A stretch of DNA of 34,796 bases. It comes from Mizuhopecten yessoensis (lineage: Eukaryota). Positions 1,195 to 34,393 of this stretch are shown piece after piece (the first letter of the stretch is position 1; each line of letters begins with the position of its first letter). The stretch lies in NCBI RefSeq assembly GCF_002113885.1, contig NW_018407210.1, positions 106,497 through 141,292 of the forward strand. The letters run 5' to 3'. A program made the translations under genes and the position numbers. Under the pieces are notes generated by a model. The model ran no database searches, was not told the DNA's origin, and worked only from the letters and a program-made list of their open reading frames with translations.

Positions 1195-1434
1195 TCAAAG
1201 AGCCATAAGGGAAAATATTTCTGAATTGTTATACAGACATACTTTATTTTGAAGTCTTTTAAGTGTGTCAAACTCTGTTTTGGTCAGATTTTTCCTGGCT
1301 GTTTTGGCAATTCTTGGCATCTTTGATCCAACATCCAAGAGATCTTCAAAAGAAAGAACAAAGCTTTTATTTTCATTTCTTACACATTTATGGTGAAGGA
1401 AATATTTTGTAAACAGGAACAAAAACAAGAACAA
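1195..1434 (-). CDS. hypothetical ORF (79 aa) in unique sequence with a mixed charged composition (..SFEDLLDVGSKMPRIAKTARKNLTKTEFDTLKRLQNK..)
   Basis: It is the only ORF in the 1.05-1.75 kb unique segment. No recognisable family, and splice or start signals were not assessed. Confidence 0.1.
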   Translation of the reverse strand: MFLFLFLFTKYFLHHKCVRNENKSFVLSFEDLLDVGSKMPRIAKTARKNLTKTEFDTLKRLQNKVCLYNNSEIFSLMAL

Positions 1435-5745: not shown

Positions 5746-6285
5746 AAGTGTGTGCGCTGAAAACAATCACACAGTCAATGATCCATCTAGTACACACTAC
5801 CAAAGTGTTCCTGTAGGAACGTACTTCAGTAAATTATGATCATTTATCAATTGGAATTAACAAGTACAAAGAAAGAACTTCATGTCAAACTCACCGCATG
5901 GTTTAGTTTTTTGATGATGTACTACATGCAAAAATTGCTGCTGTTCCTCGGATGTTCCTCTATCTAGAACCCAATTTCCATCTACATGCAGACCCCTTGT
6001 TCCTCCATCTGACATGCTAAATCGGCCTGAATTAGAAGCTGAAAATCGTAAAACAATACAGAAAATGTAGGTGTATTGATTTTTGTATTAAACAGTTCAG
6101 CATCAATATGTGTAACCTTACATTTCAACTATAATTTTCAATTTAGACTTTGATAGGAAAGCATAAAGAGTCTTAAAACACTAATCAATATAGTGAGTAC
6201 AACTCAACAGTTAGGTGTTCTTTACATCCTACACTGACCTACAGTAATAATGATTTAAGTATGACGTGTTATTACATCTAATAAA

Positions 6286-7559: not shown

Positions 7560-10500
7560 CAAATTACCTGATTTCTCTTAATATGTCTCCCTGTAGCTAG
7601 ATTACCTTACATCTCTCGCTACTATGTTTTCTGAAATTGATTAAGTACATGTTCTTTTTCTGATGACCTGATGTCACTCTACAGCTAGATTACCTGATGT
7701 CTCTCTACAGCTAGATTACCTGATGTCTCTCTACAGCTAGATTACCTGATGTCTCTCTACAGCTAGATTACCTGATGTCACTCTACAGCTAGATTACCCG
7801 ATGTCTCTCCACAGCTAGATTACCTGATGTCTCTCCACAGCTAGATTACCTGATGTCACCCTATAGCTAGATTACCTGATGTCTCTCTACAACTAGATTA
7901 CCTGATGTCACTCTATAGCTAGATTATCTGATGTCTCTCTACAGCTAAATGACCTGATGTCTCTCTACAACTAGATTACCTGATGTCACTCTATAGCTAA
8001 ATGACCTGATGTCTATCTACAGCTAGATTACCCGATGACTCTCTATAGCTAGATTACCTGATGTCTCTCTACAGCCAGATTACCTGATGTCACTCTACAA
8101 CTAGATGACCTAATGTCTCTCTACAGCCTTACTACCTGATGCCTCTCTACAGCTAGCTTACCTGATGTCTCTCTATAGCTTTACTACCTGATGTCTCTCT
8201 AGAGCTAGATGACCTGATGCCTCTCTACAGCTAGATTACCTGATGTTTCTCTACAGCTAGATTACCTGATGTCACTCTATAGCTAAATGACCTGATGTCT
8301 CTCTACAGCAAGCTTACCTGATGTCTCTCTACAGCTAGATGACCTGATGCCTCTCTACAGCTAGCTTACCTGATGTCTCTCTACAGCTAGATGACCTGAT
8401 GTCTCTCTACAGCTAGATTACCTGATGTCTCTCTACAGCTAGATTACCTGATGTCTCTCTACAGCTAGATTACCTGATGTCTCTCTACAGCTAGATTACC
8501 TGATGTCTCTCTACAGCTAGATTACCTGATGTCTCTCTACAGCTAGATTACCTGATGTCTCTCTACAGCTAGATGACCTGATGTCTCTCTACAGCTAGAT
8601 TACCTGATGTCACTCTATAGCTTTACTACCTGATGTCACTCTACAACTAGATTACCCGATGCCTCTCTACAGCTAGATTACCTTATGCCTCTCTACAGCT
8701 AGCTTACCTCTAGATTACCTGATGTCACGCTATAGCTAAATGACCTGATGTCTATCTACAGCTAGATTACCTGATGTCTCTCTACAGCTAAATGACCTGA
8801 TGTCTCTCTACAACTAGATTACCTGATGTCACGCTATAGCTAAATGACCTGATGTCTATCTACAGCTAGATTACCCGATGACTCTCTATAGCTAGATTAC
8901 CTGATGTCTCTCTACAGCTAGATTACCTGATGTCACTCTATAGCTAGATTACCTGATGTCTCTCTACAGCTAGATTACCTGATGCCTCTCTACAGCTAGA
9001 TTACCTGATGTTTCTCTACAGCTAGATTACCTGATGTCACTCTACAGCTAAATGACCTGATGTCTCTCTACAGCTAGCTTACCTGATGTCTCTCTATAGC
9101 TAGATGACCTGATGCCTCTCTACAGCTAGATTACCTGATGTTTCTCTACAGCTAGATTACCTGATGTCACTCTACAGCTAAATGACCTGATGTCTCTCTA
9201 CAGCTAGCTTACCTGATGTCTCTCTACAGCTAGATGACCTGATGCCTCTCTACAGCTAGCTTACCTGATGTCTCTCTACAGCTAGATGACCTGATGTCTC
9301 TCTACAGCTAGATTACCTGATGTCTCTCTACAGCTAGATTACCTGATGTCACTCTATAGCTTTACTTCCTGATGTCACTCTACAGCTAGCTTCCCTGATG
9401 TCTCTCTACAGCTAGATTACCTGATGCCTCTCTACAGCTAGCTTCCCTGATGTCTCTCTACAGCTAAATGACCTGATGTCTCTCTACAGCTAGATTATTT
9501 GATGCCTCTCTACAGCTAGATTACCTGATGCCTCTCTACAGCTATCTTACCTGATGTCTCTCTATATCTAGATGACCTGATGCCCCCCTACAGCTAGATT
9601 ACCTGATGCGTCTCTACAGCTAGCTTACATGATGTCTCTCTACAGCTATATAACTTGATGCCTCTCTACAGCTAGGTTACCTGATGTCTCTCTATAGCTA
9701 GATTACCTGATGCGTCTCTACAGCTATATAACTTGATGTCTCTCTACAGCTATATAACTTGATGTCTCTCTACAGCTAGCCTACCTGATGTCTCTCTACA
9801 GCTAGATTACCTGATGTCACTCTATAGCTAAATGACCTGATGTCTCTCCACAGCTAGCTTACCTGATGTCTCTCTATGGCTTTACTACCTGATGTCTCTC
9901 TATAGCTAGATGACCTGATGCCTCTCTACAGCTAGATTACCTGATGTCACTCTATAGCTAAATGACCTGATGTCTCTCCACAGCTAGCTTACCTGATGTC
10001 TCTCTACGGCTTTACTACCTGATGTCTCTCTATAGCTAGATGACCTGATGCCTCTCTACAGCTAGATTACCTGATGTCACTCTATAGCTAAATGACCTGA
10101 TGTCTCTCTACAGCTAGCTTACCTGATGTCTCTCTACAGCTAGATGACCTGATGCCTCTCTACAGCTAGCTTACCTGATGTCTCTCTACAGCTATATTAC
10201 CTGATGCCTCTCTACAGCTATATAACTTGATGTCTCTCTACAGCTAGATTACCTGATGTCTCTCTACAGCTAGATTATCTGATGTCTCTCTACAGCTAGA
10301 TGACCTGATGCCTCTCTACAGCTAGCATACCTGATGTCTCTTTACCGCTATATTACCTGATGCCTCTCTACAGCTAGCTTACCTCATGTCTCTCTACAGC
10401 TATATTATCTGATGCCCTCTACAGCTATATTATCTGATGCCTCTCTACAGATATATAACTTGATGTCTCTCTACAGCTATATTACCTGATGCCTCTCTAC

Positions 10501-13500
10501 AGATATATAACTTGATGTCTCTCTACAGCTATATTACCTGATGCCTCTCTACAGCTAGATTAACTGATGACTCTCTACAGCTAGATTACCTGATGTCTCC
10601 CCACAGCTAAATGACCTGATGTCTCTCTACAGCCAGCTTACCTGATGTCTCTCTACAGCTAGATGACCTGATGCCTCTCTACAGCTAGATGACCTGATGC
10701 CTCTCTACAGCTAGCTTCCCTGATGCCTCTCTACAGCTAGCTTACCTGATGTCTCTTTACAGCTATATTACCTGATGCATCTCTACAGCTATATAACTTG
10801 ATGTCTCTCTTCAGCTAGATTACCTGATGTCTCTCTACAGCTAGCTTACCTGATGTCTCTCCACAGCTAGATTACCTGATGTCTCTCTACAGCTAGCTTA
10901 CCTGATGTCTCTCCACAGCTAGATTACCTGATGTCTCTCTACAGCTAGCTTACCTGATGTCTCTTTACAGCTATATTACCTGATGCATCTCTACAGCTAT
11001 ATAACTTGATGTCTCTCTTCAGCTAGATTACCTGATGTCTCTCTACAGCTAGATTTCCTGATGTCTCTCTACAGCTAGGTGACCTTATGTCTCTCTACAG
11101 CTAGATTACCTGATGCCTCTCTAAAGCTATATAACTTGATGTCTCTCTACAGCTAGATTACCTGATCAGCTAGCTTACCTGATGTCTCTCTATAGCTCTA
11201 CTACCTGATGTCTCTCTATAGCTAGATGACCTGATGCCTCTCTCTACAGCTATATAACTTGATGTCTCTCTACAGCTAGATTACCTGATCAGCTAGCTTA
11301 CCTGATGTCTCTCTATAGTTTTACTACCTGATGTCTCTCTATAGCTAGATGACCTGATGTCACTCTATAGCTAAATGACCTGATGTCTCTCTACAGCGAG
11401 ATTGTTTGATGCCTCTCTACAGCTAGATTACCTGATGTTTCTCTACAGCTAGATTACCTGATGTCACTATATAGCTAAATGACCTGATGTCTCTCTACAG
11501 CGAGATTGTTTGATGCCTCTCTACAGCTAGATTACCTGATGCCTCTCTACAGCTAGATTACCTGATGTCCCTCTATAGCTAAATGACCTGATGCCTCTCT
11601 AAAGCTAGCTTACCTGATGTCTCTCTACAGCTATATAATCTGATGCCTCTCTACAGCTATATTAACTGATGCCTCTATAAAGCTAGCTTACCTGATGCCT
11701 CTCTACAGCTAGATTAACTGATGACTCTCTACAGCTAGATTACCTGATGTCTCCCCACAGCTAAATGACCTGATGTCTCTCTACAGCCAGCTTACCTGAT
11801 GTCTCTCTACAGCTAGATGACCTGATGTCTCTCTACAGCTAGATGACCTGATGCCTCTCTACAGCTAGATGACCTAATGTCTCTCTACAGCTTTACTACC
11901 TGATGTCTCTCTACAGCTTGCTTACCTGATGTCTCTCTATAGCTTTACTACCTGATGTCTCTTTACAACTAGCTTACCTGATGTCTCTCCACAGCTAGAT
12001 TACCTGATGTCTCTCTACAGCTATATAATCTGATGCCTCTCTACAGCTATATTAACTGATGCCTCTATAAAGCTAGCTTACCTGATGCCTCTCTACAGCT
12101 AGCTGACCTGATGTCTCTCTACAGCTATATTATCTGATGCCCTCGACAGCTATATTATCTGATGCCTCTCTACAGTTATATTACCTGATGCCTCTCTCCA
12201 GATATATAACTTGATGTCTCTCTACAGCTATATTACCTGATGCCTCTCTACAGCTAGATTAACTGATGACTCTCTACAGCTAGATTACCTGAAGTCACTC
12301 TATAGCTGAATGACCTGATTGCTCTCTATAGCTTTACTACCTGATGTCTCTTTACAACTAGCTTACCTGATGTCTCTCCACAGCTAGCTTACCTGATGTC
12401 TCTCTACAACTAGATTATCTGATGCCTCTCTACAGCTAGATTAACTGATGACTCTCTACAGCTAGATTACCTGATGTCTCCCCACAGCTAAATGACCTGA
12501 TGTCTCTCTACAGCGAGATTGTTTGATGCCTCTCTACAGCTAGATTACCTGATGTTTCTCTACAGCTAGATTACCTGATGTCACTATATAGCTAAATGAC
12601 CTGATGTCTCTCTACAGCCAGCTTACCTGATGTCTCTCTACAGCTAGATGACCTGATGCCTCTCTACAGCTAGATGACCTGATGCCTCTCTACAGCTAGC
12701 ATACCTGATGTCTCTTTACCGCTATATTACCTGATGCCTCTCTACAGCTACATAACTTGATGTCTCTCTACAGCTAGCTTACCTGATGCCTCTCTACAGC
12801 TAGATTAACTGATGACTCTCTACAGCTAGATTACCTGATGTCACTATATAGCTAAATGACCTGATGTCTCTCTACAGCGAGATTGTTTGATGCCTCTCTA
12901 CAGCTAGATTACCTGATGCCTCTCTAAAGCTATATAACTTGATGTCTCTCTACAGCTAGCTTACCTGATGCCTCTCTACAGCTAGCTGACCTGATGTCTC
13001 TCTACAGCTATATTATCTGATGCCTCTCTACAGCTATATTCCCTGATGTCTATAGCTAGATGACCTGATGCCTCTCTACAGCTAGCTTCCCTGATGCCTC
13101 TCTACAGCTAGCTTACCTAATGTCTCTCTACAGCTATATTATCTGATGCCCTCTACAGCTATATTATCTGATGCCTCTCTACAGATATATAACTTGATGT
13201 CTCTCTACAGCTATATTACCTGATGTCACTCTACAGCTAGCTTACCTGATGTCTCTCTACAGCTATATTATCTGATGCCTCTCTACAGCTATATTAACTG
13301 ATGCCTCTCTACAGCTAGCTTACCTGATGCCTCTCTACAGCTAGCTTACCTGATGTCTCTCTACAGCTATATTATCTGATGCCCTCTACAGCTATATTAT
13401 CTGATGCCTCTCTACAGCTATATTACCTGATGCCTCTCTACAGATATATAACTTGATGTCTCTCTACAGCTATATTACCTGATGTCTCTCTACAGCTATA

Positions 13501-13810
13501 TTACCTGATGTCACTCTACAGCTAGCTTACCTGATGTCACTCTATAGCTAGATGACCCGATGCCTCTCTACAGCTAGATTACCTGATGTCACTCTATAGC
13601 TTTACTACCTGATGTCTCTCTACAGCTAGATTACCTGATGTCACTCTACAGCTATATTACCTGATGCCTCTCTACAGCTATATTATATTACCTGATGCCT
13701 CTCTACAGCTATATTATCTGATGCCTCTCTACAGCTATATTACCTGATGTCTATCTACAGCTATATTACTTGATAGCTTTATAGCTAGATTTGCTGATAT
13801 CCATATACAG
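7560..13810. repeat. 26-bp satellite, ~236 monomers (AGCTAGATTACCTGATGTCTCTCTAC with variants AAATGACC / GCTTACC / TATATTACC / TTTACTACC), organised in places into higher-order repeats
   Basis: Period 26 measured at 7681 to 7707. HOR examples: 9000-9125 matches 9120-9245, 9780-9900 matches 9900-10020, and 11380-11500 matches 12480-12600. Confidence 0.95.
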
Positions 13811-14531: not shown

Positions 14532-17500
14532 ATTTTTTCCGCCCGTTCATATACCTGCGGCAATGCTACACCTCTTTGTCTCCTAACTGACATCTCACAT
14601 TCCCTCCACGCAACATCGTCAGCATTGGCCTAGTTAGAAATAATATAGAAAAGTATTCACAAAGTGAAACAGCAGAATTTGACAACTTAAACACCAGAAA
14701 TTGTATACAAAGAACAGATCTAGTTTCCCAACTCCCCTTGCCTTGACAAGGGTGGACTGCATTACCTAGAGCCCTATGAGCCTAAATGTCTAGCGGAGTG
14801 AAATTCATTCATAATTTAAGGACTTAAAGAATGGTTTAAGTTGGAAACATTTTTTCAAGACAACTTTCATCTGAAGCCCCTTTCACAAAGATGCTCTCTG
14901 CATTTTGTATAGTCCTTATGAGGAAACATGTACCAGTATTTCTCCTATATTACAAGCCTACATGTTGTCTCAGTCTCCTCATAAAGATATTTTCTTCTTT
15001 GGTTTTTGACCCTTATACCTCCCATGTGAATATTGTTTTAGATTGTTCAATATCAACCCCTTTAGGACCTATCTATTAGTCCCTTTAGCAGCAAGGCCAA
15101 TCAATAACACATAACAGAAAGGGAAGCCCCTTGTAAAAACGCTTAGAACCAATATTTATTTTTCCCCTTTGTAATTCTATTCTTTATCCCTTATAGCTTG
15201 TTGTTCCTACATTTGGAGACCAGTGGATTTCACCTCTGATTCTCCTAAGTCTTCAGGAGATTAAAAAGTGGTACATGTAATGTCCTGTTTAAGGAAACAC
15301 CCCTCAACCCCTACCCTCCTACTTTGAGGAAACTTTAAGTCCATTGTCATAACGATGTTTCCTTTCATGTTTTGCTGAAATATGTTCGGTCTTTATATAA
15401 GGGAAGCTCAGACAAAGTAATGCAAAGTTCATTATTTATATATATTTTATCACACAACATTATAAGTCTTCTATGTGATAAACAACTTGTGGAATAATCT
15501 GATAACAGCTATGGCGGGTTGCTATGCCTATTTCCCCAAAGTTGTGATCCGCTACAGCGCGCGTGCCGCCGTGTACTGTCATGTGGTGTCCTCATGTATT
15601 TTTATATAGGTAGCTCTTTCGGAATCCTGTGTCTAAGAATAGATTATCTTAAACATACGAATTTAAGAAAATGGCTGTTAAAACATGCGTTTCTCGATAA
15701 AGACTCAACAAAATGTTTATTTCACGTTATTTATAATAATTCAAAACAAACCATACGCTGTATGTAGCAAAAGATCGTACAATCATTACCAACAAGTTTT
15801 AAAAGGATATAATTTTCATTACTACTGCCTGCATCATGCCATTACCTGTTTTTATTACGAATCACACATCTTCCAAATTACATATAATTTTCGAATAACG
15901 TGTATTGCGCTGCTTACTTTGTATTGCAGTCTTCCTGTTTGCCACCAAGTGATTCCTATGTATCATATCTTCATTATTTATATTCAAGAAAATCTCAATC
16001 TCAAATCAGACCTATGGAAAGTATTAATAACGTTTGTGTTCATTATAGGGATATATATGGAAATCACATACCAATGGCGGTTCATCAGATTTCTCATCCA
16101 TAGCCATTTTCTTTTTCCTTTTTGGTAATTTTGGCACCGGTAAATTTTTAACCTGAATTTTTAAGTTTATGTACAATTTGATTTATTTAACTTGAAATAC
16201 TGTATACTGGGAGTTTCACTGCAGTTAAATTTTCGTCCTTTTTGTCCGCCAGAATGAGGGCAAATATATCATTACAGCCAACAATTGTTAACAACATAAT
16301 GATAATAAAAGTTAAGGGTAAATTTCATATTGGCTTAAAATGGATCTTACTTTTGAGGGGTGAAAATTTCCCGGAACACAGTATTTGATTTGCAATATTG
16401 GACAAAACAGATTTGATACGAGATTTCGCAATATGGTACACCTCAATATCCTGGTTCCATTCATAAGCGACACAAATGCTCACACAATAGCTACAATAAT
16501 ATCTTATCATTAAAGGTATGACTTATGACTTTAAATTATAATCCTCACAGACAACATGTCAAATCTGTAATTAATGTAATTGCGAATAAGTTGGGCAAGC
16601 AAAAAGGAACTATAAGATATTAAGGCAAAGTAGCATCATTGTTTTACGAATATATTTTTATGAATATACTTATGTTGACATTGAAATTCTGAAAGACAAT
16701 CTCATTTTAGGTATTGCCATATTTGACCAAAATATTTCATCAAAATCTGCTTAGAAATCAAGTTGGTAGAGTGAGATGGTTCACAAATTTCTATCAACAT
16801 TTACAAAGACCTAATGCCATCAATCCTGGAGCCCTGAAGTATAAACTCATTCCAGATGTTCTCTTACTTGTTCTTTGTATAAAGCTTGATGAAATTCTGT
16901 TAACCAAATGATGTCCCTAGAGACATGATATTGAATCGGAACAAGACTGGACAGGGGTAACACCATATGATCCCAATAAAATGTTTGGTGGGGGAGGAGG
17001 GACAGGGACAGGGGCCGTAATGATAAAAAACCTTTACAAGTGTGTCCACACATACCCATTGCTGAACAGGACATAACTAGAATTTCTTGAATCACCTCAG
17101 CTATAATCACAATCAAAGCACAACAGCAATAAATATGGTTACCTAGATGTAACTGACAGAACATATTACTCTCTTTGTTATAATTTGTGTGTCTGACACT
17201 GGTGACAGATCTTGCTGAAAATTGACAGGTTCAACTCCTATTCTGTCTAAACAGTACCTCGAAAAAGTATATGCCTAAACATTTCATACCACAGAGATGC
17301 TTGATAAAGATTGTCAGATGTATCTCCTGGCAAAAAAGAGTACAGATAGAATGGCCACTCTGACCATAAGTGCTGTCCTGTTTCCTTGTAATGAACAACT
17401 GCCCTCATCCTGTCATGGAACGATTCGGGTACAGGTTATGGTGGAGTCATTTTAATAGGCTTATCAAATGGAACTCCTAGTGCTAACTTCTTCACTGACC

Positions 17501-17617: not shown

Positions 17618-18900
17618 ATCTCATGACAATGGGATCCCTGAACCCTCTTGACTACCACCATCCCTAGACAATGGGATCCCCAAACCCTCTTGACTACTGT
17701 CATCCCACGACAATAGGATACTTGAACCTTCCTGACAACTGCCATCCCACGACAATGGGATCCCTAGACCCTCGTGACTACTGCCATCCGAAGACAACAG
17801 GATCCCCAAACCCACCGGACTACTGCCATCCCACGACAATGAGACCCCTAGACCCTCCTGACTACTGCCATCGTAACACAACAAGATCCATAAACCCTCT
17901 TGACTACTGACATCCCACGACAATCGAATCCCTGGACCCACTTGACTACTGCCATCCCACGACAATCGAATCCCTGGACCCACTTGACTACTGCCATCCC
18001 ACGACAAGGGGATCCCTAGACCCTCTTGACTACTGCCATCGGAAGACAACAAGATCCATAACCCCTCTTGACTACTGCCATCCCACGTCAATGGGATCCC
18101 CAGACCCTCTTGACTACTGCAATTCGAAGACAACAGGATCCACAAACCCACCGGACTACTGCCCTCCCATGACAATGAGATCCCTAGACCCTCCTGCCTC
18201 CTGCCACCGGAAGACAACAAGATCCATAAACCCTCTTGACTACTGCCATCCCACGACAATCGAATCCCTGGACCCACTTGACTACTGCCATCCCACGACA
18301 ATGGGATCCCTAGACCCTCTTGACTACTGCCATTCGAAGACAACAGGATCCACAAACCCACCGGACTACTGCCATCCCATGACAATGAGATCCCTAGACC
18401 CTCTTGACTACTGCCATCCCACGACAGTGAGATCCCTGAACCCACTTGACTACTGCCATCCCACGACAATGGGATCCACAAACCCTATTGATTACTGCCA
18501 TCCGAAGACAACAGGATCCCCTGAGACCCTCTTGACTACTGCCATCGGAAGACAGCAGGATCCATAAACCCTCTTGACTACTGCCATCCCACGACAATCG
18601 GATCCCTGAACCCACTTGACTACTGCCGTCCCATGACAATGGGATCTCCAGACCCTCTTGACTACTGCCATCCCACGTCAATGGGATCCCCAGACCCTCT
18701 TGACTACAGCCATCCCATGACAATGTGATCCACAAACCCTCCTGACTTCTGCCATCCAATGACAACAGGATCCACAAACCATCTTGACTACAGCCATCCA
18801 ATGACAACAGGATCCACAAACCCTCTTGACTACAGCCAACCGATAACAACGGGATCCATAAACCCTCTTGACTACAGCCATCCAATGACAATGGGATCCC
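17618..18900. repeat. 42-bp satellite, ~30 copies (GACTACTGCCATCCCACGACAATGGGATCCCTAGACCCTCTT and variants)
   Basis: Period 42 measured at 17941 to 17983. The period is a multiple of 3, so both strands stay open (ORFs 17621..18481, 18091..18567, 18394..18903). Confidence 0.9.
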
Positions 18901-19309
18901 CAATGAAATTTTTGCATCTATTGTCTAATACATTCCGAGTCAATCGACAGAATTACATTTCCTCCCATGTAGCACTACTTTTTGAGCTTTCAATACACAA
19001 ATGACAGTTTGATTGACCTACCTTCTCCAAGGGAACACTGCTGTCTAAGCTTCTTTCTAAAGTACTGGTTAATGTCCAACCATCACCATCACCTTGTGAA
19101 ACCTACAATTTAGAAATTTAAATCACTAAACAATTCGAGATATTAGAATTAAATTCTGACTGAAAATGAAAAATGTATACTCAAAAGTATAATTTCCCTA
19201 CTTAAACTATATTTAATTCTACATGCTCCCCAGGGTATTGAAATTCACAACTTTTATACTATACGACCTTTTAATCCATGAAGAGTATTTGACTCCAGCA
19301 CATCTGGGC

Positions 19310-19667: not shown

Positions 19668-20686
19668 CCTGTCTCCTTAGAGCATGCATGCCGTTTTCCA
19701 TAGGCAGAGAGCTAAACCTTTGCTGTTTCTTTTTGCTTTTGATTGAAACCTTTGATTGCAAGCCTGAAAGAGGAGGTGGTGGAAGTGCTGCTGCTGATTG
19801 AAAAGCCATGGCTGATTGTGAAGGTGGGCGAGGAGGTCCTGCTGATTGAAAAGCCATGGCAGACTGTGGAGGAGGTCCTGCTGATTGAAAAGCCCTATCA
19901 GACTGTTGAATTGGTGGAGGAGGTCCTGCTGATTGAAAAGCCACGGCAGACAGTGGAATTGGTGGAGGAGGTCCTGCTGATTGAAAAGCCATGGCAGACT
20001 GTTGAGGTAGGGACATATATGACTTTAGAAGTGGGTGAGGAAAGCCTGGTGCTTTTAGGCACTGTATGGCATATTGTGGAGGTGGGGAAGGAGGTCCTGT
20101 TGATCTGGTATGGAGTGAAGGTGGGGGAGGAGGTCCTGCTGATTTAAAAGCCATGGCAGACTTTGGAGGTGGGGGAGGAAGTCCTGCTGTTTCAAAAAAC
20201 ATGGCAGACATTGGAGGTGGGGGAGGAGGTCCTGCTGATCTGTCAGGGAGTGGAGGTGGGGGAGGAGGTCCTGCTGATTTAAAAAACATGGCAGACTTTG
20301 GAGTTGGGGGAGGAGGTCCTGCTGATTTGGCAGAGAGTGAAGGTGGCGGAGGAGGTCTTGCTGATCTGGCAGAGTGTAGAGGTGGGGGAGGAGGTCTTGC
20401 TGATCTGGCAGAGTGAAGAGGTGGGGGAGGAGGTCCTGCTGATCTGGCAGAGTGTGGAGCTGGCGGAGGAGGTCTTGCTGATCTGGCAAGGTTTCTTGCT
20501 AATCTGGCAGAGCGTAGAGGTGGGGAAGGAGGTCCTGCTGAATTCAAAGCCATGGCAGATGATGGAGGTGGTTGAGGAAGAGAAGACAGACAACTTTCTG
20601 ATGTAAAAGCCATGGCAGAAGGTGGAAATTGGGGAGCTGCTTTTAAAGTCACGGCAGACCTTGGAGACCTTTTGTGCAGAACCCTG
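19668..20686 (-). CDS. candidate internal exon encoding a Pro-rich repetitive peptide (..SAMAFQSAGPPPPPP.. 16-aa repeats)
   Basis: The minus strand has a polypyrimidine tract plus TTGCAG acceptor at ~20687 (TACTGTTCTGTTGCAG|GG) and a CAG|GTATGT donor at ~19667. The open frame itself is weak evidence because the 48-bp repeat keeps several frames open. Confidence 0.25.
19780..20640. repeat. degenerate ~48-bp minisatellite (GGAGGAGGTCCTGCTGATTGAAAAGCCATGGCAGACTGTGGAGGTGGG and variants)
   Basis: Period 48 measured at 20160-20260. Five of the six frames are open across it. Confidence 0.8.
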
Positions 20687-21526: not shown

Positions 21527-21790
21527 ATCAGGTGGTAGTTATCAATAATCATATCTGAAAACTTTCATTAAAATTTGCCCCATAGTTTTGGAGGAGTTGT
21601 GCGGACAAGGATTTTTCAACAAAGGACCATAAATTTGTAAAAAAGGGTCAGACTGAATAAATAATACCTGAATGCACAACTTCAGGTGGTAGTTATAATA
21701 TCCGGAAACTTTCGTTAAAATCGATCCATAACTGTAGAAGGAGTTGTACGGACAAAAAGTTTCAGGATTTTATCAACAAAGCGGGGGGTT
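21527..21790. repeat. ~156-bp tandem duplication, 2 copies (CAGGTGGTAGTTAT...GGAGTTGT[G/A]CGGACAA...CAACAAAG)
   Basis: Two alignable units start at 21527 and 21683. The GGAGTTGTGCGGACAAGG segment resembles the tail module. Confidence 0.7.
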
Positions 21791-22374
21791 ATAAAAACGC
21801 CGTTCAATCCATATATTTTCATTTTTATTAAAGAACAATTGTTTAATTTTATTTATTTGTTCTTAAATAATTTATTGATTTTCTGATTTTCTGCGTTTTG
21901 TATATGCGTCGTCCTTTAAACGACATTGGCGCAACAGCCCTATTTAAATTAAATTGGCGCCAATAATTAACCGTAGTCATTTGAGCGTTTGACGCAGGGG
22001 CATTCTCCATGTTATCCTAAGCGAAGCGACAAGACTCTCATTGAACAAGGTTAATCTATGACGTCAAAAGTAAACCATGTGTTTCGTCACAAGAGTTTTT
22101 GCTTCCATACTCAAATGAAATACATTTCTGCTGGGAATGTTCAAATAGTGGGTTGCAGCACAAAATGTAAATATATAAAGAGGGATGTATGTACCCTACC
22201 GTCAAAATAATATGTAGCATTTATAAACAGATCCCCTCTCCCCAAAATCGACTCCTATTACATAATTGATTACAAGTAAAACACAAATTATTTGAAATAC
22301 CAGAATAACACAATTTACAACTTTACATAGATCTATTTCCATACCTTCCCACTGGGGAATCCTCTTCCTCATCA

Positions 22375-22452
22375 TCAAACAGACCAAAGCCCATGTCATC
22401 ATCACACTCCTCCTCCTCCTCCTCCTCCTCCTCCTCCTCCTCCTCCGACATT
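22375..22452 (-). CDS. short acidic ORF MSEEEEEEEEEEEEECDDDMGFGLV*. Its C-terminus mimics the conserved ribosomal stalk P-protein (P0/P1/P2) tail ..EESDDDMGFGLFD. It may be the terminal exon of a P-like gene or a pseudogene fragment
   Basis: Translated by hand from the reverse complement of 22375-22452, with a TGA stop at 22375-22377. A TGTGTTACAG acceptor lies just upstream at ~22468-22474. The motif match is DDDMGFGL, 8 residues. Confidence 0.35.
22409..22447. repeat. (TCC)13 perfect microsatellite, which reads (GAG)13 on the minus strand
   Basis: Counted directly. Confidence 0.95.
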
Positions 22453-22699
22453 ACTTGCACTGCTTTCTGTAACACATTGAATTCCTGATCTTAACAACAC
22501 ACTTGATTTGATTGGATTTCTGATAATAAGGTTTTCAAGATTTCGAGATTTTTATTTTCAGCCACACTATATGTGGAACAAGAGGTCACATGTATAGGAT
22601 ACATTTATACAAACATTCATGGTGAAAATAACATCCCATTAGATATCTGATTATAATAACACAAATATTATAATCAACAGGTGATTCCTGGAAGTATTT

Positions 22700-22995
22700 C
22701 TAGTAATTGTTTTAAAGGGCTGTTGACTTTGTCTGATCAGTCTATAAGGTTGTCGGTAACCTTATAGCTGGTATTTATTGTTTTACAAGGCTGTTGACTC
22801 AGTCTGATCAGTCTATAAGGTTGTCGGTAACCTTAAAGCTGGTATTTATTGTTTTACAGGGCTGTTGACTCTGTCTGATCAGTCTAGAAGGTTGTCGGTG
22901 ACCTTATAGCTGGTATTTATTGTTTTACAAGGCTGTTGACTCTGTCTGATCAGTCTATAAGGTTGTCGGTAACCTTATAGCTGGTATTTATTCTG
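22700..22995. repeat. ~71-bp tandem repeat, ~4 copies (GGCTGTTGACTCTGTCTGATCAGTCTATAAGGTTGTCGGTAACCTTATAGCTGGTATTTATTGTTTTACAAG)
   Basis: Copies begin at 22718, 22789, 22860 and 22931. Confidence 0.9.
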
Positions 22996-23123
22996 GTAAG
23001 GTTTCCATGAAATGCCTACCCGAGTCATGAGTAGATTCCTGATTAAAGTAACACATTACATTCCAGTTCATAATGACACATTAGAATCCTGATGATCATA
23101 CCAAGATAGATACCTGATTATAA

Positions 23124-23290
23124 CAAGAGGCCCAGAGGGCCTGTATCACTCACCTGGATCTTTATGCCAAACAAGGATATATATGGTTATGGGGTGGGGA
23201 TCTCAACTGTTTCACTGTCATGGCCCAGAAGTTAATGTCCTAGGGGTTTATCTCCATATACCCATCAATTGCATATATTAGCCCCTTAGC
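23124..23290 (+). mobile_element. conserved element head (CAAGAGGCCCAGAGGGCCTGTATCACTCACCTGGATCTTTATGCC...GTCCTAGGGGTTTATCTCC) that precedes a tandem array
   Basis: Near-identical copy at 23848-24010. Related copies at 5180, 25807, 25990 and 27984. It contains the stem AGGCCC-AGA-GGGCCT. Confidence 0.4.
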
Positions 23291-23455
23291 CCCACTGAGG
23301 GTCAGCCTCTTAGCGACACTGCCAGTCAGCCCCTTAGCCCCACTGATGGTCAGTCCCTTAGCCCCACTGAGGGTCAGCCTCTTAGCCCCTCTGACGGTCA
23401 GCCCCTTAGCCCCACTGATGGTCAGCCCCTTAGTCCCACTGAGGGTCTGACTCTG
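23285..23455. repeat. 24-bp tandem repeat, ~7 copies (GTCAGCCCCTTAGCCCCACTGAGG)
   Basis: Direct repetition. Same family as the array at 24005-24885. Confidence 0.9.
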
Positions 23456-23720
23456 TCTGATCAGTCTAGAAGGTTGTCGGTGACCTTATAGCTGGTATTT
23501 ATTGTTTTACAAGGCTGTTGACTCTGTCTGATCAGTCTATAAGGTTGTCGGTAACCTTATAGCTGGTATTTATTGTTTTACAAGGCTGTTGACTCTGTCT
23601 GATCAGTCTAGAAGGATGTCGGTGACCTTATAGCTGGTATTTATTGTTTTACAAGGCTGTTGACTCTGTCTGATCAGTCTATAAGGTTGTCGGTAACCTT
23701 ATAGCTGGTATTTATTCTGG
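23452..23720. repeat. ~71-bp tandem repeat, ~3.7 copies. Second block of the 22700-22995 family
   Basis: Part of the ~760-bp segmental duplication. Confidence 0.9.
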
Positions 23721-23847
23721 TAAGGTTTCCATGAAATGCCTTCCCGAGTCATGAGTAGATTCCTGATTAAAGTAACACATTACATTCCAGTTCATAATGA
23801 CACATTAGAATCCTGATGATCATACCAAGATAGATACCTGATTATAA

Positions 23848-25035
23848 CAAGAGGCCCAGAGGGCCTGTATCACTCACCTGGATCTTTATGCCAAACAAGG
23901 ATATATATGGTTATGGGGTGGGGATCTCAACTGTTTCACTGTCATGGCCCATAAGTTAATGTCCTAGGGGTTTATCTCCATATCCCCATCAATTGCATAT
24001 ATTAGCCCCTTAGCCCCACTGAGGGTCAGCCCCTTAGCCCCCCTGAGGGTCAGCCCCTTAGTCCCACCGAGGGTCAGCCCCTTAGCCCCACTGAAGGTCA
24101 GCCCCTTAGCCCCACTGAGGGGCAGCCCCTTAGTCCGACTGACGGTCAGCCCCTTAGTCCCACCGAAGGTCAGCCCCTTAGTCCCACCGAGGGTCAGCCC
24201 CTTAGCCCCACTGAAGGTCAGCCCCTTAGCCCCACCGAAGGTCAGCCCCTTAGTCCCACCGAGGGTCAGCCCCTTAGTCCCACTGAGGGTCAGCCGCTTA
24301 GCGCCACTGACAGTCAGCCCCTTAGTCCCACTGATGGTCAGCCCCTTAGTCCCACTGAGGGTCAGACCCTTAGCCCCACTGACGGTCAGCCCCTTAGACC
24401 CACTGAGGGTCAGCCTCTTAGCGACACTGCCAGTCAGCCCCTTAGCCCCACTGATGGTCAGCCGCTTAGCCCCACTGAGGGTCAGCCCCTTAGCCCCACT
24501 GATGGTCAGTCCCTTAGCCCCACTGAGGGTCAGCCCCTTAGGCCCACTGAGGGTCAGCCCCTTAGTCCCACTGAGGGTCAGCCTCTTAGCGCCACTGACA
24601 GTCAGCCCCTTAGCCCCACTGATGGTCAGCCCCTTAGCCCCACTGAGGGTCAGCCCCTTAGTCCCACTGAGGGTCAGCCCCTTAGCCCCACTGAGGGTCA
24701 GCCCCTTAGTCCCACTGAGGGTCAGCCTCTTAGCCCCACTGACGGTCAGCCCCTTAGTCCCACTGAGGGTCAGCCCCTTAGCCCCACTGACGGTCAGTCC
24801 CTTAGCCCCACTGAGGGTCAGCCCCTTAGTCCTACTGAGGGTCAGCCCCTTAGCCCCACTGAGGGTCAGCCCCTCCTTTTGTTGAATTTTGAATCCTCAC
24901 CACCTGAGGATGCTTCCAGTCAAATTTAAATCAGTTTTTAAGAAGAAGTTGTTTGAAGAAATTGTTGATGGACGGACGATGGGTGCAACAGTATGGTGTA
25001 AGCTCACTTCGGACCTGGTGAGCTCATTACTCACA
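23848..25035 (+). mobile_element. complete-looking head + array + tail element: head 23848-24010, 24-bp array 24005-24885, tail with GATGGACGGACGATGG microsatellite, and palindrome AGCTCAC-TTCGGACCTG-GTGAGCT at 25001-25026
   Basis: Same module order as 27975-29230 and as the truncated copies elsewhere. All copies are on the plus strand. Confidence 0.4.
24005..24885. repeat. 24-bp tandem repeat, ~37 copies (GTCAGCCCCTTAGCCCCACTGAGG)
   Basis: Period 24 = 8 codons. Plus ORF 24334..24885 (PLAPLRVS repeats) is an artefact. Confidence 0.95.
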
Positions 25036-25354
25036 GAATATTGATTATAATAACACATTAGATTCCTGATCATATAACAATTATCATGTTGGTCTTTTTC
25101 CAGTCATTTAAAATTTCACAGAGCATACTCACCCCAATACCTTTGAGCATCATATATAGAGTATTTGATGTTTCAAGTTTGAACTCCTTTTCTATGGTAG
25201 GAGCCATTCTAAAGATAAAAAGCAGAACTCATTTTGAAATATATGTTTGGTTAAAAAGTTCATTCAACAGAGAAACTGATCTATCCACGGTTGACAAATT
25301 AAAACAGTGAAACACTGGAAAGGTTCATTTAGGTTCACTGGTGATGTTATTGAT

Positions 25355-26189: not shown

Positions 26190-26600
26190 TACCATTTGTA
26201 CAGAAGAAGAATTTTTAAAAATATTTACCTAAATGTCCCCTATACAGGCCCTTTCCCACTGCCCCAGAGGGGCCACATCCTCCATTAATACAAAAATTGA
26301 ATCCCTATGCCCAAGGATGTTGACATCAATATTTTTTTGTTTGAATCCCTCTCTTCGTACAGAAGAAGAATTTTTAATATTTTTCCCTATGTTCTCCCTT
26401 ATGAGTCCTGCCCCTCTGCCACACGGGGAGCCTCTCTCTCCCTTTATACAAAACTGAATTTTCCTTACCAATGGATGTTTTAGGCAAACTTTGGTTAAAA
26501 TCACTCCAATTGTACAGTAGAAGAATTTTACAGATTTACCTCAATTTCCCCTATTAGGGTCCAGCCCCTCTACCCCCAGGAGGGCACATTCTCCATTTAT
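26190..26600. repeat. ~160-bp repeat family, ~2.5 tandem copies (TACAGAAGAAGAATTTTT...CCCCTAT...GGCCCTTTCCCACTGCCCCAGAGGGGCCACATCCTCCATTAATACAAAA.TGAA)
   Basis: Units at 26190-26330, 26350-26500 and 26515-26600. Extra copies at 27825-27960 and 5335-5640. The array is followed by a degenerate tail (GAGCACCGCGAGCAGAAGCATGA). Confidence 0.7.
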
Positions 26601-27760: not shown

Positions 27761-28054
27761 AAACTGACTCCTTTTTGTCCAAGAAGGCCCTACACCAAAC
27801 TTGCATGGTTTAAATTTATCAACTCATACAGAAGAAGGATTTTTTTGTTTCCCCTATGTTATCCCTTATAGGTCCCTGCCCCTCTGCCACCAGGGGAACC
27901 ACACCCTCCGTTAATACAAAATTGAAGAAGCCTCTCCCAAGGATGTTCTTGCTATTTGGGGCAGGTGAACTAAATAAAACAGGAAGAGGGCCTGTATCGC
28001 TCACCTGAATATTTAAGCAGTCATAGCAAATTATTCTCATTAAATATTATATTG

Positions 28055-32618: not shown

Positions 32619-32684
32619 GTAAGTTTTAGCATGTAATTCATCTAAAGTTATGCTTTCTTCCTCCTCTTCCTCCTCTTCCTCCTC
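32619..32684 (-). CDS. candidate small exon encoding EEEEEEEEEESITLDELHAKTY, ending at a perfect GTAAGT splice donor; the 5' boundary is uncertain
   Basis: Minus strand reads ...GAG GAG GAA... ACT TAC|GTAAGTTC. Imperfect codon-phased (GAG GAG GAA)n. The exon ends in phase 0, which matches the phase-0 start of the candidate terminal exon at 31963. Confidence 0.25.
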
Positions 32685-34137: not shown

Positions 34138-34393
34138 TTATTTATTTTTTTAAACTTTATTTATTTTTTTAAACTTTATTTATTTTACAACAATTATGAC
34201 ACAAGTTATTTCAACTTATATTCATCACTCTTGTAAGCCCGGAGGTCTTAATGTGGGAGGAAACCAGAGTACCCCAAGAAAACCCACGTGGTCGGGTAGG
34301 TGACCCCATACCTTTTCACGTCTGATCAGGGAATCAAACCCCGGCTGCCTTGGTGAAAGACAAGTGCACTATCCACTGCGCCACCCGACCACC
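34138..34393 (-). mobile_element. tRNA-derived SINE, minus strand: tRNA-like head (A box TGGCGCAGTGG, reverse complement of 34373-34383; B box GGTTTGATTCC, reverse complement of 34330-34340), a central region containing GGTACTCTGGTTTCCTCCCACA, and a 3' tail made of (TAAATAAAGTTTAAAAAAA)x2 at 34138-34187
   Basis: Box A and box B sit at tRNA-like spacing, but the acceptor and T stems do not pair, so this is a SINE and not a tRNA gene. The head is closest to tRNA-Arg/Met-type A boxes, from memory. Confidence 0.6.

Follow-up and report, generated by a model that had tools for sequence, protein, structure and literature searches.

A scallop PARP4-like exon encoding an internal copy of the ribosomal stalk tail, a possible docking site for stalk-binding proteins

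The eukaryotic ribosomal stalk contains the proteins P0, P1 and P2 (PF00428), whose tail, SDDDMGFGLFD, ends at the stop codon. The stalk is reported to bind translational GTPases and Gcn2 (PMC11624264), and three other papers report that ribosome-inactivating proteins bind the peptide SDDDMGFGLFD (PMC2632931, PMC3280276, PMC5086656). A second described system is PARP4, the vault poly/mono-ADP-ribosyltransferase. In human PARP4, the ITIH-like VIT/vWA block is separated from a C-terminal MVP-interacting domain by a long disordered region (PMC10450202), which in mammals shows recurrent positive selection and has been proposed as a host-pathogen interface (PMC4038475). The two systems meet in a stretch of 34,796 nucleotides (nt) from the scallop Mizuhopecten yessoensis (contig NW_018407210.1 of assembly GCF_002113885.1, positions 106,497 to 141,292), here called the window. 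Its minus strand contains a 122-nt segment, the P-tail exon, that encodes the stalk tail as an internal peptide and very probably belongs to a PARP4-like gene. The best overall explanation, given a probability of about 0.7, is an exon of a PARP4-like gene that carries a mimic of the stalk tail, to which stalk-binding proteins would dock and which may be a bait for toxins.

The P-tail exon is delimited by the following features:

22345..22466, minus strand: P-tail exon, internal and coding, 122 nt, encoding KAVQVMS, thirteen Glu and CDDDMGFGLFDDEEEDSPVG, plus the AG of a split codon
22467..22476, minus strand: splice acceptor TGTGTTACAG, with its AG ending at 22467; the exon starts in phase 0
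22407..22445, minus strand: in-frame (GAG)13 microsatellite encoding Glu13 (Tandem Repeats Finder, TRF: 13.3 copies, 100% matches)
22374..22403, minus strand: DDDMGFGLFD, internal, with DEEED next; 10/10 match to the C-terminal tail of the eukaryotic ribosomal P-stalk
22343..22344, minus strand: splice donor GT (GGGAAG/GTATGG); the exon ends in phase 2

Because the acceptor AG ends at 22467, the first base of the exon is 22466. From 22478, the minus-strand frame translates as NVLQ/KAVQVMSEEEEEEEEEEEEECDDDMGFGLFDDEEEDSPVGR/YGNRSM and a stop. An ATG at 22451-22449 is followed by TCG and then by 13 perfect GAG codons, and a TGT (Cys) codon at 22404-22406 stands between this run and DDDMGFGLFD. 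The codons GGC TTT GGT CTG TTT GAT give GFGLFD, the canonical tail. After FD, the frame continues with GAT GAG GAA GAG GAT TCC CCA GTG GGA AG, which encodes DEEEDSPVG and the start of the split codon; the first in-frame stop, a TAA at 22328-22326, is found past the donor. The internal form of the stalk-tail peptide that the exon would yield is EECDDDMGFGLFDDEEED. Identification of 22345-22466 as an internal coding exon of a PARP4-like gene is held with very high confidence.

A sequence-only reading of this DNA had described a stand-alone micro-ORF (open reading frame, ORF) ending in GFGLV and TGA, with V in place of FD. This ending was a mistranslation, as the codons give GFGLFD without a stop at that point, FD is present and the frame reads on to the donor; the supposed micro-ORF is an ordinary internal coding exon. 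The same reading was right about the perfect (GAG)13 run, the resemblance to the factor-binding stalk tail, the acceptor just upstream at 22476-22467, and the poly-Glu that precedes the tail instead of an Ala/Pro hinge, KAVQVMS and then Glu13 being found upstream. Its suggestion of a P-tail mimic in an unrelated protein is supported, with a PARP4-like protein as the host.

The likeness to the stalk tail is not a matter of chance. A degenerate DNA pattern for DDMGFGLFD matches the window once and matched none of 100 dinucleotide-preserving shuffles, which rules out a chance origin. The exon peptide scores 27.8 bits against Pfam Ribosomal_60s (PF00428), at profile positions 66-88 of 88, and so misses the gathering cut-off of 28.1 bits for ribosomal P proteins. 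Against the PDB, it matches the P1, P2 and P0 tails with E about 7e-4. A strict-threshold scan for splice sites and ORFs did not pick up the P-tail exon.

Beyond these ten residues, the window copy differs from true stalk proteins. The likeness consists of an identical DDDMGFGLFD placed after an acidic run. However, the window motif is internal whereas stalk tails end at a stop, and the window has neither an N-terminal dimerisation or uL10 domain nor an Ala/Pro/Gly hinge. When human P0, P1 and P2 sequences were used as tblastn queries against the whole 34.8-kb window, they matched the tail alone; the N-terminal domain and the hinge were not found. No poly(A) or A-run was seen downstream of the motif, and no in-frame stop directly after FD. 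In addition, the window has Cys for the conserved Ser and lies inside a PARP4-like protein. In stalk proteins, the Ser before DDD is a CK2 phosphorylation site.

As a control, a metagenome collection was scanned for DNA encoding DDMGFGLFD, which gave at least 120 loci. Among the 120 listed, TAA, TAG or TGA directly follows FD in 116. The residue two before DDMGFGLFD is Ser in 79 and Glu in 39 and is never Cys, and the longest Glu run has 7 residues as against 13 in the window. Absence of a stop, absence of a body or hinge, the Cys and Glu13 thus separate the window copy from true stalk proteins in all but the ten residues. A metagenome scan for the extended motif DDMGFGLFDDEE gave 0 matches.

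Four of the listed loci read on past FD. One of them, L093, provided the lead to PARP4. Its ORF of 2006 amino acids (aa) contains BRCT, PARP_reg, PARP, VIT and vWA domains, the architecture of PARP4, and holds an internal EEDSSEDDMGFGLFDVGPP with a proline-rich stretch next to it. Of the other three, one is a P0 whose stop has been lost, one (L006) is a DUF4139 protein of fungal type and one (L036) is an ORF without a Pfam domain. The last two resemble the window in having an acidic run, DDDMGFGLFD and then more protein (FDDGPAVG.. in L006, FDGSEARP.. in L036); they differ in that their host proteins are unrelated and show no PARP4 link. These internal copies in non-ribosomal ORFs are found at L006:4336-4863 (..QEEEESDDDMGFGLFDDGPAVGH..) and L036:195-725. 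Internal stalk-tail copies are therefore not restricted to PARP4.

The host gene is well supported as a scallop-type PARP4-like gene. Its closest annotated relative is the Pecten maximus "protein mono-ADP-ribosyltransferase PARP4-like" (XP_033740041-45), encoded at LR736842.1:14278511-14359082 (L121). Over its C-terminal third, this protein matches the window minus strand in collinear order. In both, the P-tail exon is followed by the Pro-rich exon, then by three small ones and by the exon with which the C-terminal domain begins. The tblastn matches on which the collinearity is based are:

22469-22371, minus strand: Pecten aa 1414-1446, QKSEPLTSSLMRAMTAPSEESEDDDMAFGLFDD against QKAVQVMS-E13-CDDDMGFGLFDD
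20571-19765, minus strand: Pecten aa 1491-1736, Pro-rich repeats, E 8e-38 without composition correction
18918-18880, minus strand: Pecten aa 1755-1767, weak
14629-14528, minus strand: Pecten aa 1806-1841, weak, with a VSWRxCE motif
5997-5905, minus strand: Pecten aa 1882-1912, 48% identity, E 5e-4, composition-corrected
1368-1216, minus strand: Pecten aa 1911-1961, 57% identity, E 1e-11, composition-corrected

Besides the P-tail exon, the following exons were delimited or, for the last in the list, proposed:

19669..20683, minus strand: Pro-rich exon, 1015 nt, with SAMAF(Q/K)SAGPPPPP repeats; acceptor CTGTTCTGTTGCAG/G, donor CAG/GTATGT
19022..19102, minus strand: candidate exon, 81 nt, VSQGDGDGWTLTSTLERSLDSSVPLEK; attgtag/GTT ... 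GAGAAG/gtaggt, phase 0 to 0, read by eye
14555..14629, minus strand: exon, 75 nt, ANADDVAWRECEMSVRRQRGVALPQ; ctag/GCC ... CAG/gtatat
5895..6038, minus strand: exon, 144 nt, ..SNSGRFSMSDGGTRGLHVDGNWVLDRGTSEEQQQFLHVVHHQKTKPC; ttttcag/CT ... TGCG/gtgagt
1243..1343, minus strand: exon, 101 nt, (D)LLDVGSKMPRIAKTARKNLTKTEFDTLKRLQNK, which enters the conserved C-terminal domain; ttttgaag/AT ... AAA/gtatgt
32619..32684, minus strand: candidate upstream acidic exon EEEEEEEEEESITLDELHAKTY, not established; ttttttttctgctttgctaag/GAG ... TAC/gtaagt, phase 0 to 0

These exons fit together. The AG at the end of the P-tail exon and the G at the start of the Pro-rich exon complete the split codon and join in frame as ...DSPVG-R-VLHKRSPRS.... 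Likewise, the exon at 6038-5895 ends on one base and that at 1343-1243 opens on two, so that they also join in frame. All six exons delimited from 22466-22345 to 1343-1243 have open frames, canonical AG/GT borders and compatible phases. In composition-corrected BLASTP, the spliced model matches Pecten with E 5e-10 and 35% identity over the stretch from the motif onward (Pecten aa 1432-1653), and the last two exons, spliced, show 59% identity over 71 aa (E 4e-24). The smaller exons are individually weaker. The candidate at 19022..19102 weakly resembles Pecten LLEVESSTSMPSVEEK (exon at L121 63437-63493), and the exon at 14555..14629 is collinear with Pecten DTSVSWRSCEKS (L121 68268-68378) and weak alone, with E about 1; its VSWR motif also occurs in the PARP4 tails of Ruditapes, Dreissena and Sinanodonta. 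The candidate at 32619..32684 matches the Pecten poly-Glu exon (aa 1304-1345) only weakly and through low-complexity sequence.

The model covers part of the gene. At least one exon is expected between 14555 and 6038 and was not found, and the final exons of the gene fall beyond window position 1. A tblastn search with the L093 ORF found no BRCT, PARP, VIT or vWA exons in the window. A protein search with the Pro-rich ORF alone gave no significant match. With the P-tail exon peptide, a word-index protein search returned nothing, and among 1.84 billion representatives a full HMMER scan picked out a single protein, P1-like and duplicated; both searches have low power because the query has 40-41 aa of low complexity. 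This protein (P0001, 177 aa) has two hinge-plus-tail units, the first tail being degenerate and internal (EESDDDMGFKRYDD), and represents a tandem duplication or else a gene model that was fused.

Comparison with Pecten at the DNA level gives further detail. The Pecten motif likewise occupies its own short exon (L121 56255-56352), and the orthologous exon is present in all four Pecten isoforms. The Pecten exon begins at ...CTGATGTTACAG/ACT in phase 0 and ends at ...GCTAAA/GTACAA in phase 2, so that the intron phases around it (0 and 2) are equal in both species. The acceptor is also kept, with GATGTTACAG/A in Pecten and ATGTGTTACAG/A in the window. The Pecten Pro-rich exon (L121 57053-57997) lies 0.7 kb past the P-tail exon and starts at TTTTGTAG/G GAT; in both species, it opens with a single G. 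Likeness thus extends over exon order, P-tail phases, acceptor, Pro-rich exon and the start of the C-terminal domain, and it includes an intron satellite described below.

The two exons differ in several respects. Where the window has (GAG)13, Pecten has GAG GAG TCT GAG GAT GAC GAT (SEESE), and the alignment shows a 39-nt insertion in the window; since Pecten lacks the run, it is a lineage-specific in-frame expansion of an acidic stretch. Other differences of the window are Cys for Ser/Glu before DDD, MGFGLF where Pecten has MAFGLF, the sequence after FDD, and a donor placed about 21 nt earlier. At the site of the Cys codon (TGT, 22404-22406), the Pecten PARP4-like protein has Ser-Glu (L121 about 56270), and Ruditapes PARP4 also has Cys (ESCDDDMGFDLF). 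Within DDDM[G/A]FGLFDD, 4 of the 11 codons differ between the species, three synonymously and one from Gly to Ala. The motif is therefore identical at 10 of 11 residues, compared with about 35% identity in the surrounding region. As a genomic feature the locus is ordinary, being a further orthologue of an exon already annotated in the Pecten PARP4-like gene.

The stalk-tail motif recurs in PARP4 tails of other animals. A search with L093 gave 585 PARP4-like proteins, many of them from bivalves, and 120 were retrieved and scanned. An acidic [MLIV][GA][FLMI]x[LM]F[DEG] motif, also written more narrowly as [MLI]G[FM]xLF[DEG], was found in 20 of the 120, always internally, at residues 1234-2239. 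The bearers are sponges, bivalves, a gastropod, amphioxus, a brittle star and fish. Bivalve examples are Ostrea DDSDDEEMGFGLFDDDYE, Mactra EDEEEMGFGLFDDEPLY, Ruditapes ESCDDDMGFDLFGG and Crassostrea DVDDLGFNLFGDDD, and further examples are amphioxus ESEEEMGFGLFDDDEG and Amphiura DSDDDMGFGLFDDDDD. Among sponges, the motif occurs in Ephydatia (two copies), Dysidea and Amphimedon; it is also found in Aplysia (two copies) and in the fish Anableps (two copies) and Cyprinodon. Judged from these sequences and from the codon comparison with Pecten, the motif has apparently been kept under constraint in PARP4.

The P-tail exon falls in the long, disordered and fast-evolving stretch that lies past the VIT/vWA block and before the C-terminal domain. 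In bivalves, this part of PARP4 contains pieces of other conserved host proteins: hmmscan above Pfam cut-offs identified a full ubiquitin, a synaptobrevin SNARE motif, an HSP70 substrate-binding domain, actin residues about 5-55, Snf7 and EF-hand pairs. Fragments between vWA and the C-terminal domain were also noticed in PARP4-like proteins of bivalves, sponges, cnidarians and hemichordates, including ubiquitin ending in LRLRGG, calmodulin-like EF-hands and 14-3-3; the proteins that bear them include P0014-P0016, P0018, P0019, P0032, P0041-P0043 and P0059. By eye, an H3-tail-like KQTARKSTGGKAPR and YSPTSPS, resembling RNA polymerase II's C-terminal domain (CTD), were seen in Dreissena and Mactra, and FG repeats in PARP4 tails.

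The motif probably imitates the stalk tail as a short linear peptide, on which proteins that normally recognise ribosome-borne tails would dock. What would dock is less certain. The favoured mechanism, put forward tentatively, is that the exon supplies a bait for ribosome-inactivating toxins. The window motif DDDMGFGLFD is identical to the stalk peptide that trichosanthin, ricin A chain and Shiga-like toxin are reported to bind in the papers cited above. In this mechanism, conserved host targets would be displayed as copies on the PARP4 tail, and ribosome-inactivating toxins (ricin, Shiga or trichosanthin type) would be caught by the stalk-tail copy. Once caught, they would stay at PARP4 or the vault, where they would be ADP-ribosylated or sequestered, and would not reach the ribosomes.

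A broader form of this proposal is possible but doubtful. The animal PARP4 tail could be an array of conserved host-protein copies on which the toxins and proteases of pathogens are caught, as by a bait or a tripwire. In different lineages, this array may comprise the stalk tail, an N-terminal piece of actin, ubiquitin, SNARE, HSP70, Snf7, EF-hands and, as seen by eye, H3-like and CTD-like stretches. Within such a decoy array, the window exon would be the bait for ribosome-inactivating toxins. The comparison is with the integrated decoys of plant NLR proteins and with the "tripwire" sequences of animal NLRP1 and CARD8, which PARP4 resembles in having host-target copies inside a suspected defence protein. 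However, PARP4 is not an NLR and has no known downstream signalling; the likeness is meant as a working analogy, not as membership of that group.

Several observations weigh against the favoured explanation. The free carboxy-terminus of the stalk tail is described as important in ricin complexes in one report (PMC6822507), and as the motif in the window has no free C-terminus, an internal copy may bind such toxins poorly. The window Cys occupies a position that is Ser or Glu in 118 of the 120 listed metagenome loci. The motif is missing in 100 of the 120 PARP4-like proteins scanned, and scallop PARP4 proteins are without the actin, ubiquitin and HSP70 inserts of other bivalves. Moreover, the perfect (GAG)13 run reflects recent slippage, so that part of the exon is evolving neutrally. 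With regard to the gene, the N-terminal PARP, VIT and vWA exons are outside the window and would be upstream, beyond 34796. Its exons are only 35-59% identical to Pecten and could therefore belong to a paralogue or a distant orthologue, and splicing of the P-tail exon in this species is deduced from sequence and orthology. Finally, a limited literature search found no paper describing the stalk-tail motif or the host-protein fragments in PARP4, and no priority is claimed.

The main rival to the toxin bait, judged somewhat unlikely, is an endogenous link to translation. In this alternative, host proteins that bind the stalk tail (eEF2, eEF1A, eRF3, eIF5B or GCN2, a kinase) are brought by the motif to PARP4 or to the vault, where the recruited factors may be substrates for ADP-ribosylation or may link vaults to translating ribosomes. 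The motif is identical to the factor-binding tail, and conservation of the motif in PARP4 from sponge to fish would suit an ancient housekeeping interaction no less than a defence role. Assembly of vaults on polyribosomes, as described in PMC7618893, and binding of the stalk to translational GTPases and Gcn2 (PMC11624264) also favour a link of this kind. However, it leaves unexplained the actin, ubiquitin, HSP70, SNARE, Snf7 and calmodulin-like EF-hand fragments in the tails, the lack of the motif in 100 of 120 PARP4-like proteins, and the positive selection in mammals.

It is improbable, in turn, that the motif is a passenger, an RPLP piece captured long ago into the PARP4 tail that persists without a specific binding role. 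The tail is repeat-prone, fast-evolving and disordered, as the perfect (GAG)13 and a 39/48-nt coding repeat illustrate, many PARP4 orthologues lack the motif, and the conserved Ser is lost in the window. Yet the motif is kept at 10 of 11 residues with mostly synonymous changes inside a region of about 35% identity, it recurs across phyla and sometimes in two copies, and neutral identity over 10 residues at such distances is unlikely.

Very unlikely is a decayed or skipped pseudo-exon, in which the locus, as a PARP4-like gene or a pseudogene copy amid abundant satellites, would no longer splice the exon into mRNA. Tandem arrays crowd the window, the donor lies about 21 nt off its position in Pecten, at least one exon between 14555 and 6038 was not found, and two protein searches gave no protein containing the exon. 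However, all six delimited exons have open frames, canonical AG/GT borders and fitting phases, and the negative searches are weak because the query is only 40-41 aa long and of low complexity.

A remnant of a ribosomal P-protein gene, either a divergent last exon or a 5'-truncated processed pseudogene without its stop, is effectively excluded: although the tail matches 10/10, the Ribosomal_60s score reaches 27.8 bits and true P-protein ends make up 116 of the 120 listed metagenome stretches encoding the tail, the window has no P0/P1/P2 body or hinge, no stop after FD and no downstream poly(A), the donor joins the next PARP4-like exon in frame, and position and phases equal those of an annotated PARP4-like exon. 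Both origins had been offered in the sequence-only reading. The last exon of a divergent P-like gene does not agree with a motif that is not terminal, has no P0/P1/P2 N-terminal domain or hinge anywhere in the window, and is followed by a donor that splices in frame. As for a retro-pseudogene fragment, no upstream coding sequence and no stop with 3' untranslated region or poly(A) were found, and the position is orthologous, with the same phases, to the annotated Pecten exon. A processed RPLP pseudogene was likewise rejected, with no P-protein coding sequence upstream, no A-run downstream and a segment bounded by in-frame splice sites.

Repeats make up much of the rest of the window, and some of them adjoin the P-tail exon. 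In the intron just upstream, 22706-24874 holds two copies of a composite block, in which a 24-bp array (AGCCCCTTAGCCCCACTGAGGGTC) is followed by about 290 bp that are unique and then by a 71-bp array. Roughly 30 nt of the unique part (ATCAGGAAT..AATGTGTTAC) recur in the acceptor region of the P-tail exon, and 25051-25080 is a third copy of this stretch; the E-values of these matches, 0.007-0.025, are borderline. The upstream flank of the exon shares only these roughly 30 nt (ATCAGGAAT..AATGTGTTA), at 79-95% identity, with the three nearby repeat copies. The possibility of a repeat-borne flank, raised in the sequence-only reading as a flank shared with other microsatellites, was rejected: the window has only one further GAG/GAA run (32655-32684), whose flanks are unrelated, and the motif side is unique in the window.

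The largest array lies in an intron of the PARP4-like gene:

7662..13774, strand not assigned: satellite array of a 26-bp unit (GATTACCTGATGTCTCTCTACAGCTA), 6.1 kb, intronic (TRF)

A related satellite occupies the matching Pecten intron (L121 73116-76356) in the same orientation, with about 62% identity over 3-4 kb. Its presence in both matching introns indicates that the array predates the split of the two species. A 42-bp tandem array of 30 copies at 17618-18900 is open in minus-strand frames (..GIPLSWDGSSQEGL..), with the frame broken near 18484, and its 5' edge at 18918-18880 (DAKISLGIPLSLD) weakly resembles collinear Pecten DANVSIAVPLSLD; it may have arisen by expansion of a coding repeat, or as an array within an intron that was seeded from an exon.

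Dispersed repeats are present as degenerate copies at 24900-25100, 26232-26540, 27822-28046 and 21545-21770, with pseudo-coding frames (MSSPGPK.., ..GRGAGLIRENIGKNIKNSSS..); we take them to resemble high-copy elements of bivalve genomes. A 155-bp repeat at the window start (188-474) matches L121 79784-80061 and 38878-39122 at 77-82% identity. It is a dispersed repeat common to both genomes and no sign of synteny. At 34319-34389 on the minus strand, ARAGORN made a tRNA-like call with an undetermined two-base anticodon, which is probably a tRNA-derived repeat or a false positive. No Rfam family reaches threshold in the window, and the Rfam and tRNA scans gave nothing relevant.

An exact copy of the stalk tail has thus been kept inside PARP4, from sponges to fish, and in bivalves it stands beside fragments of other conserved host proteins. 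This pattern fits the view of the PARP4 disordered region as a fast-evolving host-pathogen interface (PMC4038475). The finding opens simple tests of the role of PARP4 and the vault, through binding of the peptide to toxins or to translation factors. If the decoy array is real, it would be an animal functional counterpart of the integrated decoys of plants, carried on a vault-packaged ADP-ribosyltransferase, and it would provide a testable job for vaults, whose function has stayed unknown for decades.

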